Shown here one piece after another: positions 276 to 42,325 of a stretch of 64,000 bases of DNA (within the stretch, counting starts at the first letter, position 1; each line of letters opens with the position of its first letter). The notes under the pieces were generated by a model. That model was not told the DNA's origin, made no database searches, and was given only the letters and a program-made list of their open reading frames with translations. Source of the DNA: a virus; IMG/VR virus record IMGVR_UViG_3300021373_003510, positions 13,942 to 77,941 of that record. One strand, written 5' to 3'. The position numbers and the translations under genes were made by a program.

Positions 276-3200
276 TTAAATTACTGCTCTTGAGTTCGAA
301 GCTCTTCTTGCTAGCTTACGAACCGAAGAGGTAAATGGTCGGCCTTCAATTCGACCTGTTCGACCGTTAATTCTTAATCCTCTTGCGAAGTACTGGTTAT
401 TCAATTCATCAGCACCTGACCATCGGATTCTACCACCGTCCTCATTAAGAACCGAAGCAACCGCTGATATAGCAGCACCTAAGTTTCTAAAGTTCAGAGG
501 CAATGCATTTCTGTTAACACCAGCTGATGCACCGTTAAACTGGTGAGCAATAGATTCAACCAACGATCCGAATATTAATGTTTCAGGTCTCAATACATTG
601 TCTTTCAGACAGTCGTTGAATAATCCTTCAATCATCAATGAGTGAGTTGAATCAGGAGATAGGTTATTAACAATATATGTTCTCATTCTATCCCACGACC
701 CAACAAACGCATCTAACAAGTCTGTATTGTTAGCACCTTCTAATACCCAAGTTGAACCATTCCAATAATATATATTACCTGCATAGAAGTTTGTGGTATA
801 ATCAGTAGCTACAATGTATGCCCAGTTTGGTTTCATTCCAGTGATTGCTGAAAGATCTGAAACTTGAGCAACTGAACCCTTATACTTCAATCCTTGCATT
901 GTTGGGTTGAATACTGGGAACACATGAGTTCCGTCGTAATCAAATAACGATGCTGTAAATGTTCTTATTGCATTCTGATTTCCGTTTGTTGTATAACTCG
1001 GAACTGGTACAGTAACATCTTCGTATTTGAAATCGTTCTGTAAAGCAGTCAGAAGGTTTCTTGCATCTCTTCTTGTTAAGTTAATATCAAGGAAGTCATA
1101 AGTAGCATTTACATATCTTACAGTATCTTTCTGTAATTCTTTTCTTCTTGTTTGTAAAACATTTCGAGCATCAACAAATGGTGCTGCAGCATAACTGTAA
1201 TCAGGTTCTTCCTTAACAGGTAAGTACTTAGTATCATTATTTATTTGAGTAAAGAAGAAGATATCAGCAAGGTCTTTAACCTTTTTACTTTCAACTTCAG
1301 TTCCTATTTCACCAAGTATCTTCATACCTGGGTATTCACCGATTACGATATCTTTACAAATCTTACCTAGTTGACGATATGACTTAGCAGTTGGTGCTCG
1401 TTGATCTTCAGGCAATCTGTAAACTTGATTCCAGAAGTAGAAATCAGCGTTCCATCTTGAAGCAGTATTACCACCGAAGTTCAAGTCGAAGCTGAATGCA
1501 TCAAGTAAGAAACCTGTATCTCTTCTACACTTATCTTTGTTATAATCAAGTACATTAAATTGACTGTTTATAAATTCAGTTACATCGGAAGCAAGTTCTT
1601 CAGTATTATCAACAAGTTTCTGAGCAGCATTGTTAAGTTCAGTTGTTGGGAAACTTGAATTTGAATAAGGTCTTGGTAATTCATCATTATCATTAGCTCT
1701 TATTGAATTCTCAATAACACCAACCAAGTTAACAACCTCAGTACCTTCAACCGAAGTAGCCGCCGTACCTAATGTATTTTGCGGAGTTAAAGTATATGTA
1801 CTTGCATTGGTTACTGGAGTTTCTTGAACTACCTGAGACATTGCAGTACCAAGCAATTGTAATATGTCAGCATATTGTCTCTGCTGATCTACAGGAAGTA
1901 CTGATACTCCTTTCTCAAAGTAAATGCCTGCTGATTGTAATGTTGCGAAGTTTGTTTCATGTTGAATATCGTGTGATATAGCATCAATAGTATATCCTAT
2001 ATCTCTTCTACATCTTGCTCTTGGGAAACTCAATCCGTTATGATTAACTGATATATAACTTATAACACCTTCTGCAGCAGTATGAGATAATTTCTCAACA
2101 AGCTCTTTAGCAGTTATATAGTTATCTCCCATCCAAGTTTGATCCACATCAATTCTTTCAGGAATTGTAGCTCTTACCTCGTAAGAATCATCAACTGCAT
2201 CAGCAATAAGTTCAACAAGCTTTCTTGTAGCAATACAAGTATCTGGATTTGCACCATGTATTGAGAAGTCTTGAGCTTCTGTTGATTGATACGAAGGTAC
2301 GCCGTTCCAATATTCGTATTTCGTTACAATATCACCAGTGTAATATTTTCCGGTTCTTGGGAATAGTTTTGTTTCAATATCCTTAGCACCAACAACATGT
2401 TCTATAACTTTTGCCATGTGGAGGAATGCATCTCTTGAACCCATTCTTTGTTCGATCTGCAATCCAGTATTTACTGTATTTTCAAAATACATTCCTGCAG
2501 TTTGAACTGAAGCTGCATTACCGCCATATTGAATATCGTGAGAAACTGCATCAATAATATATCCAACATCTCTTCTGCATTTATTTTCACTGAATGGAAG
2601 TATGTCATAATTTTCTGCAAGATGAGCAAGCAAGTCTTTAGCAACTGTTTCTTTAACTCCAAGTACTTCATTAAACGCTGCTTGATTAACTGCATCGTAA
2701 ACTGATACTTTAGGCAATTCATAAGCAGGATTTAAAAGTAAGGTTGCACTTGCAAGAGCATCTGCACAAAGATCAAATAGACCTTCCATTTCGGCACCTA
2801 GCGGAGCACCACCTGAACCTGAACTGAAGTCTTGAGTTAACGCATTGCCTGTTGATTTCAAACCACCTATGTCAGTATCTTGGACAATTAAATCAACACA
2901 ATCTCCAAGATGCTTAAACAGCGCAACTGAAGGTTCAATTTGATCTTCAGGTAAACCAACATTAACTCCCTGTTCAAAATAAAGTCGAGTAAAGTTTTGA
3001 GTAGCAAAGTTACCTTGATGTTGTCCATCAAATGAAACTGCATCAATTAAGTATCCTGTGTCTCTTTCGCATTTAGCAACATCGTAAACATGACTTGGTC
3101 TGTTCGCAGCAAGCCATGCTGTTGCTTCAGCTATTAAGAACGCTTTGTTATTTTGTAGTTGAGATCTACCGTTAATTCGAGCAACACCTTGAGCATTACC

Positions 3201-6200
3201 TGTAAATACGATTGTATCAGCAGCAGCTCTACCATTTGTCATAACATCAATGATTTCATCAAATGCTTCTTCAACTTTAACCTTTAGTGCTGAATCGGTA
3301 ACTGCCTTAACTGCTAAACCTTTCGCAAATTTAATGCCTTCAACTGTCTCAGTTAATTGTTCGTTAATTACTCTGTTTGTACTTACGGTGTCAATTCTGT
3401 AAGCAGTACCGTTAAATACTGCATTATAGTTAGAACCTGTAAGTACATCAACTGCAACTGCATCAAGAAGTAAACCTAGGTCTCTCTTACATCTATCTCC
3501 ATCAAATGTATAATAACGATCTTTCAGATAACCTTGTACTTCTTCAATAATAAAGTCTCTGTTTTGTTGTAATTGCTTTCTTGCTAATGTTCTGTTTGGA
3601 TCGAACGAAGCCTTAGTTAATGTTGGGAATTCATCATCTTCGATATTTACATCATCAACCAAGTCGGCAATTGTATTAATTAAATCATGTACTATTGTAC
3701 CTGTTGCTGCATTAGCCGCAGTTCCATCTGTATTTTGATAAGGACCTGTACTAATTGAACCAACATCAGCAGAAACAAATGTATGTGGATATTGACCTGA
3801 GCCACCGCCACCAACATTCATTGTGATAGTTGTACTAGTGATTGCTGTAATCGTAACCGCTTTATTATAATACGGATGATGTTTCTGTGGTGAGGTATGG
3901 TTTTGCTGACCACTACCCATATCACAACTGAATGTAAATCCTTCAGGTTTCAGATAAACTTTATTACCTACATCAAGTGTATGAGTTCCAATTGTTGCTG
4001 TGAATACTCCAGTTGCCGGATCGTAAGTGGCATTACTTGGATTGAATGTCGTAAATGTTGTGGTATGAGCAACTTCTTTAACAACCTTTTCAGCAACATC
4101 TGCTAGGTGAGCAAATGCTTTTCTTGTTGGTTCGCGTTGTTCATAAGGCAATACATTAATTGCTTCTCTCAATCCTGAAACATTGGCAGTATCTTCATAA
4201 TCGGATAATGTTTTAAATTGTCCTTTTACTTCAATAGGCAATACATTAGTTGATCTTAACTGTTCGTAATCCGCTGATGCAGAATCGAATCTTCTAAAGT
4301 AATAATCAAATACTTCTAATGTATTTTCATTTCCACCGTATTCAATATCTCTTGATACTGCGTCAACAATTAAACCAACATCCCTTTCGCAAACTTCCTT
4401 AGCGTAAGGTAATCCGTTGTGTTCTTTTCTTAGGTAATCAATTACTGACAACGATAGATTTTCTGTTATACCATCAATTGCTTCACAAGCAGCTACCATT
4501 GCAGTTTCAACATTAGGTTCGATGTAAGCAGGTAAATGATCTATTGTATCATCAGAGATTGCTTGAGTTACAATATTAACTCTATCTCTTGCTAAGTTAG
4601 CAACCTCGATACCTCTATCGGTTCCTGAAACATCTTGAGATACAGCATTTCCTGCAGAAGGTGTAATAGTAATATCTCTAACAATATTCCAACATACATC
4701 GGCAATATGTTCCCATGTTTTGTATGTAGGTTCTTTTTGGTCAGCAGGTAATACTGAATTTGCATTTTCAAAATACAATCTTGCGAAGTTGACAGTACAT
4801 GTATTACCGCCAAACTTAACATCTTGTATTAATGAATCAACCAAGTAACCTGTATCTCTTTCACAATCGGCAACACTATATGTTAGTGAAGGATAATTAG
4901 CTGCAATGTAAGCAGTAGTTTCAGCAATAATAAATGCTCTGTTGAGAAGTAGTTGATTAGCAGCTTGTTTATGATCTTCAGTTAAAGCAGCTTCAGCTCC
5001 GTATGTCTTAGTTCCAACAGCACTTGAACCATTTTGTAAGATATCTATAATCTTATCAAAGTGTTGGTTTGAGCGAGTTAATGCAGTTCCTGTAACATTA
5101 GGATCGGCAGCAACCTCAGCCTTTAAGTAATTAATTGCACCTACTGTTTGTACTAACTGATCGTTAATAACTTTGTTAGCACCTACAGAACCAGTTCTAT
5201 AACCTAATCCCATGAATTGAGAATTCCAAGTAGAACCTGTAGCAATATCTCTTCTTACTGAATCAAGAATGAATCCTGAATCTCTTGTACATTTTTCGCC
5301 GTTGAATACAAAGTATTCAGAATCTAAATAATCAGAAACTTCTTTTTGTAAGAACTCTCTGTTAATTTGCATTTGTTCTCTTGCATATTGACCTTGAGAG
5401 TTATAAGTAACTTTCGATACCGCATCTTTGATGACCGATACAAATGTATGGGCTCCACCTGAGCTTGCAGCTAACTGAATAGTAACATCATCACCATTTA
5501 CAGCAGTGATAGCTTGCGGCTCTCTATAATTTGAATCGCCTTTTCTTGGGTATGAATGTTCAGTTGCATTACCATCCTGAGCACATGTATAAGTAAATGA
5601 TAATGGAGCAATCTCAATATAATCATCTGTTGTTAAATCATGACCAGGAATTGTCATTACACTGATTCCTGTAGCAGGATCGTATGTAGCAGTTGTTGGT
5701 GTATAATGCTTGACATAAGAAGCAGGATCTGTAAATACCAATGCGTCTGAATCAATACATCCAACCTCAGCTCTAACGAATGTATGAGCCCCGCCAGGAC
5801 CTGTTCCTACATTCATTGTAATTGTATCAGAGGTTACCGAAGTAATCTTTATAGGCTTCTTATAAGTAATACTATGATGTGATTGAGGAATAGCATGTTC
5901 ATATACATTTCCATCTAATGCACAAGTAAATACAACCGAGCCTGGTTTAATTGATACGTAATCGCCTGCTTCTAAATTATGTTGTCCGATTGTGGCAACA
6001 AATACACCGGTTGTTTCGTCGTAAGTAGCAGTTCTTGGTGTATAAGTAGATACATAATTACGTGTCTTAATATTATTTGGTGTTGCTGATATAAATGTAT
6101 GAGCAGATGTATCAGTTGAAGTACCTGCATTAACTGTAATCGTTGTGTTTGTTGTAGCAGCTACTACTAATGGCTTCTTATAACCAGGATGTTCTCTTGT

Positions 6201-39067: not shown

Positions 39068-40897
39068 ATGGCAGAGAATAAAGATCAAATAGTAGAACGC
39101 CTAACGGAGGAAGGACTCTTATTAAGAAATAAGGGTACTAATTCTCTTAAGTCAGTTAAAGATAGAATAGGCGATTTAGATACAAAGTTTAGCGGAGTAC
39201 TAAATTCTATTTCAATGCGCACTGGTGAAACTGCTCGTGCTTTAGGTTCAATTGAAAGTTATTTAATAACAGGAAATACTATTGCTAACGAAGGTCTTAA
39301 TGAGCTTGCTGATAGAATAGACACAACTAACGAACAAGCAAAAGAACAAGCCGAAGATCAAAGACAACAAGATCAGGAAAACAGAAGACAAGAAAACGAA
39401 AATAGAAGAGAAGGGATTCTTCAAAATCCATTTAGTGCCATCATGGGAGACCTTGATAATTTAAGAAAGGATATAAGACAAAAGCCTGGAGAAACTTTAT
39501 TTAAAGGATTGAAATATGCGTTCCTTGCTCCTATCTTAGCAGGTGCGGTAAAAGGAGTATTAGATTTAACATTTGGAGAAGGTTGGATTGATTCTCCGAT
39601 TATGCAATTAGTTAGAGAGAATCCTGCTAAAGCTTTAATTGGAGCATTCGTTGCATTTAAGGCAGTTGATTGGATTGCGATTGGCGCATCTATTACATCA
39701 GCTATGTTATCTCTTAAAGCAATGGCCATGTCGAACGGCGGAAGAGGTGGACCTGTTGTTGCTCCTGGTGCTCCGGGAGCTCCTGGCGGTCAGGGTTCAA
39801 AGGGTAGTAGGTTAAAGAATTTCTTAAAAGGCAATAAAGGTAAAGTAGGTTTAATTTTAGGAGGCACAGGTTTATTATTATACGGCAACGAATTCTTTGA
39901 CGGTGATGATGTCAAAGATGTTGAATCTGAAGTAAAAAGAATTAATCAAGAAGCAACTGCAGATGAACAGCGTGTTATTGATGAAAAATTAACAAGTTTT
40001 GAAAAAGAAAGAACAGGACTAGGCGATGCTTTAATTGACGCAACGACAGGTGCAGGTATTGGTTTCCTTACAGGTGGTCCTGTTGGCGCATTGGTTGGTG
40101 CTGCAGGTGGTCTTGCCTTTACTTTGATTGGAAGAACATGGGAAGCCATTGATGATTCTATGAATGATATTGATGCTATACCTAATGATATTGAGCAAGC
40201 ATTACGACAAGAAACAGCAGCTCTCAATAGAAGAAGAAATAAATTATCAGCAGAACAACAAGTAGAGCTATATAAAACTACTAACGCGGCAATTGAAAAA
40301 ACAATCAAAGATCTTACTGATGAAACTGGTACAATGGATGCTGACATTGCTGCATTAGAAGGTGTTGATTTTGAAGCCGGCGTTACAAGAAGAACAGGCG
40401 GAAGATCTGGTAGGGAAATTACAGAGTTTGAAGTTAACGGCGAAATGTTAGAAAGAAGTGAAATAGAGAAAAAGCTACAAGACCTTAAAAATGAAAGAAT
40501 ATTAAGAGAAGAACAACTCGTTGCTTCAAGAAGAATTTTAGAATTAAGACAACAAGAATCCGAAGCAGTACAAGAAAATATTAATGCACAAGGAGAAGCA
40601 ACTGATACTGTTGCCGCAGTTGCCGATGAAGTACTTAAAAAGACAGGTACTAATCCTGAAATTGATCCTGACACAACAACAAGAGAAAGAGATGTTAGAA
40701 CAACACAAACTGGTGGGTTTGCTTTTAATACAGTAAATAATTACTATAATAAAGGTGGTGATAACATTATGACAAACAGTTCTGATAACAGATCAAATGT
40801 TAGTAAGAATGTTGGTGTTGTTGTAAATGGTGGCGGTGGTGGAGGAAGTCGTTTCTCAGGTGGATTAATTGGTCCTAACGGACAAGCTATGGGATAA
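39068..40897 (+). CDS. Tail tape-measure-like protein (gp29-like)
   Basis: 609 aa of coiled coil with Gly/Ala hydrophobic segments; directly after gp26/gp51. Confidence 0.6.
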   Translation: MAENKDQIVERLTEEGLLLRNKGTNSLKSVKDRIGDLDTKFSGVLNSISMRTGETARALGSIESYLITGNTIANEGLNELADRIDTTNEQAKEQAEDQRQQDQENRRQENENRREGILQNPFSAIMGDLDNLRKDIRQKPGETLFKGLKYAFLAPILAGAVKGVLDLTFGEGWIDSPIMQLVRENPAKALIGAFVAFKAVDWIAIGASITSAMLSLKAMAMSNGGRGGPVVAPGAPGAPGGQGSKGSRLKNFLKGNKGKVGLILGGTGLLLYGNEFFDGDDVKDVESEVKRINQEATADEQRVIDEKLTSFEKERTGLGDALIDATTGAGIGFLTGGPVGALVGAAGGLAFTLIGRTWEAIDDSMNDIDAIPNDIEQALRQETAALNRRRNKLSAEQQVELYKTTNAAIEKTIKDLTDETGTMDADIAALEGVDFEAGVTRRTGGRSGREITEFEVNGEMLERSEIEKKLQDLKNERILREEQLVASRRILELRQQESEAVQENINAQGEATDTVAAVADEVLKKTGTNPEIDPDTTTRERDVRTTQTGGFAFNTVNNYYNKGGDNIMTNSSDNRSNVSKNVGVVVNGGGGGGSRFSGGLIGPNGQAMG

Positions 40898-40924
40898 AAA
40901 ATAAGGGACCCGAAAGCCCCTTAT
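40896..40924. terminator. Intrinsic terminator between convergent genes, probably bidirectional
   Basis: Minus strand reads AUAAGGGGCU-UUCG-GGUCCCUUAU followed by a U run. Confidence 0.8.
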
Positions 40925-40933
40925 CTTTGTTCA

Positions 40934-41098
40934 TTAAGCGACCCATTTCACACCGCGGTAAATTCCTTGCCGCTGTGCTTTAGATGGCTTACTTAGATTT
41001 TCGCTTTTCCAAGATACACCACGATAGACACCAGATTCAGTTTTTCTGGTTTCTTTCTTAGGCTTGTCTTGAACTTTGATACCTCTATAATAAGTCAT
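40934..41098 (-). CDS. 54-aa basic peptide with three YRG motifs (DUF4278 / GifB N-terminus-like)
   Basis: GGAGG 6 nt before ATG 41098; MTYYRG..VYRGV..IYRGV. Confidence 0.75.
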   Translation of the reverse strand: MTYYRGIKVQDKPKKETRKTESGVYRGVSWKSENLSKPSKAQRQGIYRGVKWVA

Positions 41099-41160
41099 AT
41101 CATGCCTCCAGTTTTCGTTTCGATTTCGTACATACAACTTTCGTTGCACACCCTTCTCAA

Positions 41161-41274
41161 CGCGTTCCTTCGGTATAACTGTCGGTCTCGTTCGGCAGAA
41201 CGCCTACTTGCTTCCCCACAGAACGTGGGAGGTTTTCAGGTTATCCTACTTCCGCTATATTTCTATAGTGAACG
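41161..41274 (-). ncRNA. Glutamine riboswitch (glnA-RNA class) with an expanded P3 arm
   Basis: CGUUCA-[CUAUA GAAA UAUAG]-CGGAAGUAGG...CCGAAGGAACGC; upstream of a YRG peptide. Confidence 0.8.
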
Positions 41275-41292
41275 TATTACTATATATATCGG

Positions 41293-41820
41293 TTAACCTT
41301 TTGGTCTAGGACCAAATTTCAAATAAGCAAGAACTTTTTCAGGAGCAGTTTCACCATACGGATCCGACTGACAATTATCAATCATTCCTGGCTCAGTGAA
41401 TAATTTTTCAACTGTACCATTATCTACAACCATAGCATATCTCCAAGATCTTCTTCCAAAACCAAGATTGTCCTTTGCGACTAACATATCCATGCCAGCC
41501 GTGAACTCACAAGATCCATCAGGAATGAATTTTACATTCTTAACTCTTAGATCTTCAGCCCATGCATTCATAACAAAAGCATCATTACAGGAGACACAAT
41601 ATACTTCATCAATGCCTGCTGCAATAATCTCGTCATATAATACATCAAAGCCTGGAACTTGATTATTAGAACAAGTAGGTGTAAATGCGCCTGGCAGCGA
41701 AAATACTACTACTTTTTTATTGTCAAAATAGTCTGCAGTTGTTGGATGTGTCCATTCGACTTCTCCAGTATCTACATTTCTGCTTCTTACTTTGAAAGTT
41801 ACGTTAGGTACTTGTTTCAT
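41293..41820 (-). CDS. Peroxiredoxin (Prx5 type)
   Basis: FSLPGAFTPTCS; NDAFVMNAW; GFGRRSWRYAM. Confidence 0.93.
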   Translation of the reverse strand: MKQVPNVTFKVRSRNVDTGEVEWTHPTTADYFDNKKVVVFSLPGAFTPTCSNNQVPGFDVLYDEIIAAGIDEVYCVSCNDAFVMNAWAEDLRVKNVKFIPDGSCEFTAGMDMLVAKDNLGFGRRSWRYAMVVDNGTVEKLFTEPGMIDNCQSDPYGETAPEKVLAYLKFGPRPKG

Positions 41821-41841
41821 TATATAATTTCCTATTTAATT

Positions 41842-41862
41842 GGGAGGCCATTGCGACCTCCC
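41842..41862 (-). terminator. GC-rich hairpin downstream of Hsp20 (weak terminator or processing/stability element)
   Basis: GGGAGGUCG-CAA-UGGCCUCCC stem with no clear U tract. Confidence 0.45.
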
Positions 41863-41875
41863 GGATTAATAAAGA

Positions 41876-42325
41876 TTAACCTTTTAAGAATTCTTTCTTA
41901 GTATCAATCTTAATTTTTCTAGCCTTTTTGCTCTCAGGAATTATTCTTTCCAAAGCAACAGTTAAAAGGCCGTTTTTGAAGTTGGCTCCAATTACCTCAA
42001 TATCGTCTGCAAGAGTAAAACTTCTTGTAAACTTTTTGAAGGAAATTCCACGATGAACATAGTCACCGCCACCATTGAAGTAATCTCCTGCTTCATCCCA
42101 TGTGGAACGAACAGTTAATACATCTTCTTTTACTTCGATTTCTACATCATTAATATCAAGACCAGCTAAAGCAAGATCAATAAAGAACTTATCTTCGTCT
42201 CTTCTGATATTGTAAGGCGGAAAGCCTTGTGCTTGATGTTGATGAGGGAACTCCACCAATCTGTCAAAGACTCTATCGAATCCTACCGCAAATGGGTGTA
42301 GTTGATTTATATTTAATCCAGTCAT
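41876..42325 (-). CDS. hsp20: Small heat-shock protein Hsp20 (IbpA-like)
   Basis: GFDRVFDRL; FPPYNI; YVHRGIS; NGLLTVALERIIPE. Confidence 0.93.
   Translation of the reverse strand: MTGLNINQLHPFAVGFDRVFDRLVEFPHQHQAQGFPPYNIRRDEDKFFIDLALAGLDINDVEIEVKEDVLTVRSTWDEAGDYFNGGGDYVHRGISFKKFTRSFTLADDIEVIGANFKNGLLTVALERIIPESKKARKIKIDTKKEFLKG

Follow-up and report, generated by a model that had tools for sequence, protein, structure and literature searches.

The window analysed here is a stretch of 64,000 nt from the IMG/VR virus record IMGVR_UViG_3300021373_003510, a record of 77.9 kb that is only 36% complete, and all coordinates given below are positions in this window. On its minus strand the window carries a compact unit that consists of a T4-type late-promoter-like box, a leader containing a glutamine-I (glnA, RF01739) riboswitch aptamer with a large domain inserted in its P3 arm, a Shine-Dalgarno (SD) sequence, an open reading frame (ORF) for a basic protein of 54 residues with three YRG motifs, and an intrinsic terminator (Table 1). 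Judged from these parts, the promoter box, leader, small ORF and terminator probably make up a self-contained late-gene cassette. Relatives of the cassette occur in other viral contigs and in the chromosomes of SAR86, which is among the most abundant heterotrophs of the surface ocean. Nearly all elements listed in the initial annotation, which was made from the letters of the window, lie on the minus strand where it had placed them; one correction concerns the inner CGUUC/GAACG hairpin, which proved to be lineage-specific.

Table 1. Features of the cassette and its leader in the window.
Feature	Position	Strand	Basis or remark
T4-type late-promoter-like box TATATATA	41281-41288	-	6 nt upstream of P1
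Glutamine-I (glnA, RF01739) aptamer with its insert	41159-41276	-	RF01739 and R1 matches (scores in text)
P1, CGUUC with GAACG	41270-41274 with 41163-41167	-	sequence, RF01739 alignment
P2 hairpin, CUAUA-GAAA-UAUAG	41255-41268	-	sequence
J2/3 and loop-E 5' strand, CGGAAGUAGG	41245-41254	-	RF01739 alignment; G41252 expected to pair with the linchpin C
P3 base and stem, GG-AUAAC(C)UG with CAGUUAU-A-CC	41237-41246 with 41172-41181	-	
P3 base and loop-E 3' strand, CCGAAG	41168-41173	-	sequence, RF01739 alignment
Inserted three-way-junction domain	41175-41244	-	relatives and covariation
Stem S	41237-41244 with 41175-41181	-	
Junction strand GAAAACC	41231-41237	-	
Helix (hairpin) A, UCCCAC/GUGGGG	41214-41230	-	
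Arm B	41189-41210	-	C41210-G41189 pair
Arm B, second AGUA	41205-41208	-	
Arm B, GGC/GCC hairpin	41194-41204	-	
Arm B, GAA	41191-41193	-	
Second AAGUAGG	41203-41209	-	
Junction strand AGACCGA	41182-41188	-	
P0 helix	41116-41162	-	C41162 and GUU (41159-41162) with AACG (41116-41119)
Hairpin C, capped by GAAA	41132-41149	-	inside P0
Shine-Dalgarno GGAGG	41105-41109	-	6 nt before AUG, 6 nt after P0
54-residue basic protein, three YRG motifs	40934-41098	-	DUF4278
Intrinsic terminator, hairpin and U run	40897-40928	-	-16.5 kcal/mol, z -4.3, 0 of 200 shuffles as stable

The aptamer, proposed as a glutamine riboswitch (glnA) in the initial annotation, was recovered by a permissive-filter scan of positions 40850-41400, in which positions 41159-41276 match RF01739 (Glutamine) with 43.3 bits, above the cut-off of 35, and an E-value of 3.4e-8. 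A default-filter scan of the whole window at the Rfam gathering thresholds reported nothing and missed the aptamer. The Downstream-peptide RNA (RF01704), to which the leader had also been likened, has no match in 40850-41400 at E-values up to 10. The alignment covers the full RF01739 model (1-53) and every consensus core letter is present, with 69 nt replacing the 4-nt P3 loop. A long-form covariance model built of aptamer and insert (R1) scores 93.8 bits on the window, with an E-value of 1.7e-22; the two E-values together mark the observation as real and not a product of chance. The glutamine-contacting features stand at their consensus positions, namely the C-G and G-C pairs of P1 and the G of J2/3 (CGUUC/GAACG, CGG). 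The loop-E parts are also present (AGUA at 41247-41250, GAA at 41169-41171), as are the predicted linchpin partners G41252 and C41162. In the solved glutamine-I structure (Ren et al., described in PMC6698751), glutamine is bound in the groove of P1, where it contacts C1:G59, the triple of G2:C58 with G22, and the long-range pair. The role of this long-range G-C linchpin pair is described in PMC6212724 and PMC6698751, and P3 sticks out to one side, away from the pocket (PMC6698751). The short P3 hairpin of RF01739 is not found in the window, where 69 nt take the place of the 4-nt loop and are kept as a structured domain; since P3 is peripheral in the structure (PMC6698751), a long P3 changes the subclass and not the class. 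The leader is thus almost certainly a genuine type-1 glutamine riboswitch, and its P1/P2/loop-E core appears canonical and would be expected to form the glutamine pocket and to bind glutamine. Across the relatives P2 has double-sided changes in five of its seven pairs, with 97% of cells paired. P1 is invariant in 69 leaders, an invariance set by the search pattern. Minimum free energy (MFE) folding of the single leader was uninformative (z -0.69).

Relatives of the leader were collected in two scans whose patterns left the stems and joiners between the anchors free. Viral contigs were scanned by an exact pattern that placed the two core strands 45-75 nt apart; this gave 64 loci, 61 of them with the window-type insert and three with simple tandem aptamers. 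Prokaryotic genomes, one per species, were scanned with an insert-specific pattern and yielded at least 120 loci. Among the matches listed, the complete composite leader is present at at least 40 loci, all in SAR86-cluster or a few gammaproteobacterial assemblies, and these SAR86-type loci lie on contigs of up to 640 kb; the other rows among the matches listed are chance occurrences that lack the aptamer flanks. The structure was analysed on 69 distinct leaders (31 viral, 38 SAR86). In the 61 viral loci the insert has the same order of parts as in the window: the variable stem S, GAAAACC, hairpin A, G-N-W-AGC(U)A-AGUA, the short hairpin B, GAA-C(A)G-AGACCGA, and the second strand of stem S. 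The junction strands are almost invariant. The U and C of CCUC close helix A by pairing with two G after the hairpin in 100% of leaders; 3-7 variable pairs of up to five standard types follow, and these are 90-100% canonical. In hairpin B two pairs are canonical without exception, in three or four types, and stem S occurs as AGAUA/UAUCU, AAAC/GUUU, UAGA/UCUA, UAAAG/CUUUA or AUAAC/GUUAU. The U in AGC(U)AAGUA and the A in GAAC(A)GAG are always found together, both in 15 leaders and neither in 54, and in the tree the leaders with both fall in at least three separate lineages. The co-insertion brings the C of AGC to face the G of GAG, so that arm B becomes a continuous helix with a second AGUA/GAA loop-E. 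A structure of 45 pairs for the whole leader has 94.0% standard pairs, compared with 81.9% in column shuffles. Its covariation score is 0.280 against 0.108 in shuffles (none of 500 reaches 0.280), and the score falls to 0.03-0.07 when the partners are slid by 1-3 columns. Changes on both sides are seen in 26 of the 45 pairs. What has been conserved as the insert is thus a three-way junction of about 70 nt with covariation in all its stems, in agreement with the large structured domain that had been proposed to nest within P3. A swap of the inner CGUUC/GAACG with P1, offered in the initial annotation as the switch, is unsupported, as its complementarity is absent from the relatives: the inner copy arises from the GUUCU loop of hairpin B in this lineage, where relatives have GCAA, GUAA, AUCC or others. 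What is conserved at this place is a short helix, GGC/GCC in the window, with AGUA on one side and GAAC on the other. A CUC/GAG helix considered as closing the insert was dropped, since the UC of CCUC is always taken up by the GG that follows hairpin A; the U:A co-insertion also contradicts it, as this sets the G of GAG and the C of AGC face to face. By its conserved sequence and structure the long-arm form is a distinct subclass of the known glutamine-I riboswitch, and no published description of the extra P3 domain was found.

The ORF downstream of the leader encodes a DUF4278 protein, in agreement with the earlier suggestion, the Pfam profile PF14105 matching residues 3-51 of 54 with 32.1 bits (cut-off 25.3). 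Seventy-two distinct homologues of the peptide were collected. In an alignment of 30 three-repeat homologues Y-R-G is invariant at all three sites, within the frame (G)-[IV]-Y-R-G-[VIT]-[KR]-[HW]; a few homologues have two repeats. AlphaFold2, run with the homologue alignment, gave a predicted local distance difference test (pLDDT) value of 69 and a predicted template-modelling score (pTM) of 0.23. In this model each YRG lies at the turn of one of three small beta-hairpins joined by floppy basic linkers, too loose for a fold search, and since the model has no globular fold, the protein probably orders on a partner. That the partner is glutamine synthetase (GS), the peptide being an inactivating factor like IF17 by which the phage shuts down host GS at high glutamine, is a rather doubtful proposal. 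The DUF4278 domain is common to the peptide and IF17, the control by a glutamine riboswitch is that of gifB (PMC6212724), and other glutamine riboswitches lie directly upstream of GS genes in SAR86, so that GS and the peptide share a regulatory signal. Against it, the peptide consists of DUF4278 only and ends three residues past the domain match, so that the IF7-like C-terminal region required to bind GS is missing. Short DUF4278 proteins without the C-terminal IF17 residues needed for GS binding, including homologues in Prochlorococcus, have been described before (PMC6212724). The cassette-bearing SAR86 genomes, moreover, mostly have a weak, partial Gln-synt_C match, the one examined being a 358-residue GS that is not of type I, and the three loose beta-hairpins of the model (pTM 0.23) also speak against a GS inhibitor.

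Between the aptamer and the start codon lies a further helix, P0. Its 5' strand is the C that directly follows P1 together with two or three bases after it, and this strand pairs immediately upstream of NRAAC-UGGAGG. P0 encloses a conserved module of GAGAAGGGUGU, hairpin C and AUGUACGAAAUCGA, which is followed by NRAAC-UGGAGG. P0 is a covarying helix: in the 69 leaders its positions 1-3 are paired in 100, 100 and 99%, with the variants CGU/ACG, CAU/AUG and CUA/UAG, and in one viral group it is extended to six pairs. Hairpin C has double-sided changes in six of its eight pairs. For the gifB leader of Synechocystis the linchpin C and adjacent nucleotides are described as pairing with the putative ribosome-binding site, and glutamine is postulated to melt this helix (PMC6212724). 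By analogy, C41162 would be held in P0 when glutamine is lacking, paired with bases 6 nt upstream of the SD sequence, and P0 would clamp the structured spacer against the ribosome-binding region. Binding of glutamine would recruit C41162 to the long-range pair with G41252, so that P0 melts, and the melting would allow more translation of the 54-residue DUF4278 protein, an ON switch like that of Synechocystis gifB. A glutamine-ON translational switch acting through P0 is given about an even chance of being the correct description. The other arrangement considered, in which P0 is not controlling and the SD sequence is sequestered directly whenever the aptamer is unfolded, either by CCUC(Y) in the insert or by another CC-containing aptamer strand, is regarded as unlikely. 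RNAalifold on the whole-leader alignment pairs CCUCY with GGAGG, the MFE structure pairs SD with CCUC(Y) in 7 of 68 leaders, and SD accessibility goes up when the aptamer is enforced. CCUC(Y) and GGAGG are, however, both invariant and pattern-fixed, hence there is no covariation between them; the UC of CCUC already forms the base of helix A in every sequence, and the MFE partner of the SD sequence differs between sequences. Two upstream frames were rejected as coding. An upstream ORF that begins at the AUG in AUGUAC and whose stop overlaps the main AUG changes frame or stops early in relatives, and a GTG-extended ORF of 71 residues reads conserved nucleotides that are in different frames or are stopped early in relatives. 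At 41096-41131 (minus strand) the AUGUAC opens a frame of 12 codons whose UGA overlaps the AUG of the peptide (AUGA), in the window and in several SAR86 copies. Other lineages have this frame shifted or interrupted, which makes a conserved upstream ORF improbable.

With regard to its role, the inserted domain is most likely a peripheral scaffold or docking domain; as P3 points away from the glutamine pocket (PMC6698751), a large domain at its tip need not disturb the pocket. That the insert is itself another sensor within the first, as a partial internal duplicate of the aptamer that senses glutamine or another ligand or protein and makes a two-input or cooperative switch, is considered quite unlikely. 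The insert does echo the layout of its parent (hairpin, purine-rich joiner, AGUA, short helix, GAA), its junction strands are conserved as strongly as the core, tandem glutamine aptamers occur in SAR86 and in viral contigs, and the insert alone aligns to positions 9-43 of RF01739; yet this last match is not significant (12.3 bits, E 1.8), the equivalent of P1 in the insert (stem S) varies freely, and the pocket-forming elements of the solved structure, C-G/G-C pairs and linchpin, are missing from the insert (PMC6698751). Three viral contigs with tandem canonical glutamine aptamers (L009, L018, L060), one of which is 228 kb long, have them before unrelated ORFs of 32-33 residues that contain no YRG motifs.

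The putative transcription unit is bounded on both sides. The promoter box TATATATA matches the T4 late consensus TATAAATA at seven of eight letters, and the relatives L014, L016, L017 and L019 of the same clade have the exact TATAAATA at the same distance of 6 nt. Among the 29 distinct viral upstream regions TATAAATA is found in 12, at 6, 22 or 25 nt from P1. Either TATAAATA or TATATATA stands at fixed distances in 14 of these 29, as against none of 39 SAR86 regions, which have TTG...TATAAT-like, sigma-70-type promoters. The nearest relative of the window (L063) has a cassette that is 94% identical, also follows a peroxiredoxin gene and also has TATATATA at 6 nt. At the other end the terminator sits between convergent genes, so that the late-promoter-like box and terminator recognised at the outset do enclose the unit. 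The other viral loci have genuine T4-like flanks, and each locus has its own neighbours: major head protein and tail tube (L017), a gp32-like single-stranded DNA-binding protein (L014), late sigma factor and helicase (L004), and Hsp20 (L015). Because of these differing flanks the cassette appears to be a mobile unit in marine T4-like phages. In three seawater metatranscriptome runs of 2025, short contigs with word depths of about 1,070-3,290 match only the leader segment 41093-41175, and they continue on both sides into SAR86-type sequence (an L085-like insert and the N-terminus TYYRGVKVNS), a sign that RNA from SAR86 homologues of the cassette is abundant in seawater. Sequence resembling that of the window phage is present only at low depth: it covers the whole stretch in one 8.1-kb contig of a 2016 RNA library with a depth of 17.5, by which transcription of the window copy is not shown. 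The contigs of this kind in the 2025 runs have depths of about 4-11, reach only to about 41187 and are silent on the transcription and the 5' end of the window copy.

In 151 genomes of the SAR86 order, model R1 finds 44 long-form copies with 114-131 bits, together with many short canonical copies (50-64 nt) that are often adjacent pairs. In 151 cyanobacterial genomes the best R1 match has 42 bits, nearly all matches are short forms, and no match carries the long-arm domain. Two cyanobacterial matches (G347:C5:202924-203054 and G407:C1:147714-147826) span 131 and 113 nt with only 32-35 bits, which suggests unrelated P3 insertions in some cyanobacteria. In the one SAR86 locus that was annotated, L075, the cassette is flanked by rnc-era on one side and recO-acpS-adk on the other. 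In a maximum-likelihood tree of leader and ORF the viral and SAR86 copies are interleaved, with four label changes (bootstrap range 2-5), and the window falls in an all-viral clade; this pattern indicates that the cassette has been exchanged between phages and SAR86 more than once. The phage of the window, from its RegA and other neighbours of the cassette, is classed as T4-like and distant from every isolate. Its T4 translational repressor RegA is about 63-66% identical to both the Sinorhizobium phiM12-type phages and the cyanomyoviruses, a blastn search of the cassette against GenBank phages gave zero matches, the GC content is about 35-37%, and no tRNA genes are present in the window. Since the cassette is chromosomal in SAR86, SAR86 or a close relative is the most likely host, and the phage would then express a host-type nitrogen-status protein late in infection. 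The earlier remark that the host may not be a cyanobacterium thus gains weight from the long form found in SAR86 and absent from the 151 cyanobacterial genomes. A cyanophage carrying a cyanobacterial gifB-like element is very improbable, for although its RegA is about 65% identical to that of cyanomyoviruses and glutamine riboswitches are classically cyanobacterial, the Sinorhizobium phages are equally close in RegA, psbA is absent from the 78-kb record searched (36% complete), the long-form domain is absent from the 151 cyanobacterial genomes, and the true genome matches (at least 40, among the matches listed) are all in SAR86 or gammaproteobacterial assemblies. The SAR86-order assembly G117 has one contig (G117:C62, locus L186) with a T4-type RegA homologue that is 60% identical to that of the window; this contig may be a co-assembled or infecting T4-like phage.

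Taken as a whole, the reading of the locus as a SAR86-type late-gene cassette with a long-arm subclass of the glutamine riboswitch, an ON switch through P0 and a phage that likely lives on SAR86 is judged moderately probable. Several points weigh against it. P0 stops 6 nt short of the SD sequence and does not cover it. In partition-function modelling, enforcing the aptamer raises SD accessibility modestly and inconsistently (median 0.53 to 0.69), and the partner of the SD sequence varies among sequences. The search patterns themselves prescribed the core strands, AAAACCUC, AAGUA, GAGACCGA and GGAGG, and also CCUC and most of the junction strands, so that the invariance of all these is partly ascertainment. 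Ligand binding and gene control by the long-arm subclass are put forward as predictions. The interleaving of viral and SAR86 copies in the tree has no rooted direction. The host assignment, finally, derives from the similarity of the cassette alone: no tRNA or prophage link to a host was found, and a RegA homologue, at 60% identity, is present in only 1 of 266 SAR86 assemblies, which is no proof of host. A bolder extension, in which the P3 domain is a functional second module, docking a ligand, protein or RNA, that gates or tunes the glutamine response and the YRG mini-protein is a hitherto unrecognised regulator of SAR86 nitrogen assimilation, captured repeatedly by T4-like phages and rewired to late promoters, is speculative and improbable; were it true, the mini-protein would act on the 358-residue GS, on PII/GlnK or on another target, and the phages would manipulate the nitrogen flow of the host.

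The nearest described system is the gifB (IF17) leader of Synechocystis sp. PCC 6803, which has the same P1/P2/loop-E core, the linchpin C and a DUF4278 gene, and likely the same translational ON logic, by which the ligand, once bound, frees the nucleotides that follow P1 (PMC6212724). The window differs from it in that P3 has a three-way-junction domain of about 70 nt in place of a 4-nt loop, the SD sequence lies about 55 nt downstream behind a structured spacer enclosed by P0, the product has 54 residues and is DUF4278 alone, and the setting is SAR86 and T4-like phages and not cyanobacteria. The chromosomal SAR86 cassettes (L075 and others) have a leader with the same composition (aptamer, insert, P0, hairpin C, GGAGG) before a peptide of 52-55 residues with three YRG motifs; they have sigma-70-type promoters and a longer P2 and helix A, whereas the phage copy has the late-promoter box and stands between phage genes. 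RF01739-type riboswitches are likewise reported from marine T4-like myoviruses of non-cyanobacterial hosts, namely the OM43 phage Melnitz, the Pelagibacter phage Mosig and pelagimyophage metagenome-assembled viral genomes (PMC9004378). According to the passages of PMC9004378 that deal with them, these lie in the 3' part of a two-piece tmRNA gene, and those passages mention no peptide cassette or P3 domain; relative to that account, the switch of the window precedes a DUF4278 ORF under a late-promoter-like box. The glutamine-II riboswitch (Downstream-peptide, RF01704) has the same ligand, a similar downstream gene and a near-identical pocket in a pseudoknot architecture (PMC6698751). Weinberg et al. 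gave the taxa of the glnA RNA as 'Cyanobacteria, marine', with associations to PII, GS, GOGAT and ammonium-transporter genes and with tandem copies (PMC2864571). Copies from marine metagenomes, in part located upstream of glnA, were pointed out by Klähn et al., who called their taxonomic affiliation unknown (PMC6212724), and a long-read study of 2025 mentions RF01739 in SAR86 metagenome-assembled genomes in passing (PMC12379486). Glutamine riboswitches have hitherto been treated as a cyanobacterial device; the cassette and its relatives place them in SAR86 and in probable SAR86 phages, with short, often tandem forms before GS genes of SAR86 and the long-arm form before the DUF4278 mini-protein. 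With the extra domain of about 70 nt, a riboswitch of solved core structure gains a defined part that can be tested. The late promoters and the varying genome positions suggest that reading host glutamine and making a small protein pays late in infection, and for uncultured T4-like phages the cassette may serve as a marker of the host.

Comparison of riboswitch coordinates with a GS family search places short glutamine riboswitches directly upstream of GS genes in at least eight SAR86 genomes (G045, G033, G061, G022, G041, G018, G030 and G007; loci L188 and L190). Tandem riboswitch pairs lie about 400-500 nt before two type-I GS genes in SAR86. SAR86 is probably the organism behind the marine glnA-associated copies that Klähn et al. 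called unknown. Most sampled SAR86 genomes, including the cassette-bearing ones, have a weak, partial Gln-synt_C match of about 50 bits. In G001 (L187) the only GS homologue, at G001:C4 1195-2271 on the minus strand, is the protein of 358 residues with Gln-synt_N and Gln-synt_C (about 61 bits in Pfam). It is an unusually short and divergent GS and is followed by an NtrB-like PAS/HisKA kinase.

The neighbours of the cassette in the window, as assigned with Pfam, are peroxiredoxin, Hsp20, dUTPase and RegA. The peroxiredoxin (Redoxin/AhpC-TSA) and Hsp20 genes lie directly upstream, at 41293-42325 on the minus strand, as auxiliary stress genes, and Hsp20 adjoins the cassette in the viral locus L015 too. 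Convergent with the cassette, at 39068-40897 on the plus strand, is an ORF of 609 residues that belongs to no Pfam family and has long Gly/Ala-rich as well as coiled, charged stretches; an ORF of 608 residues likewise adjoins the cassette in L014.

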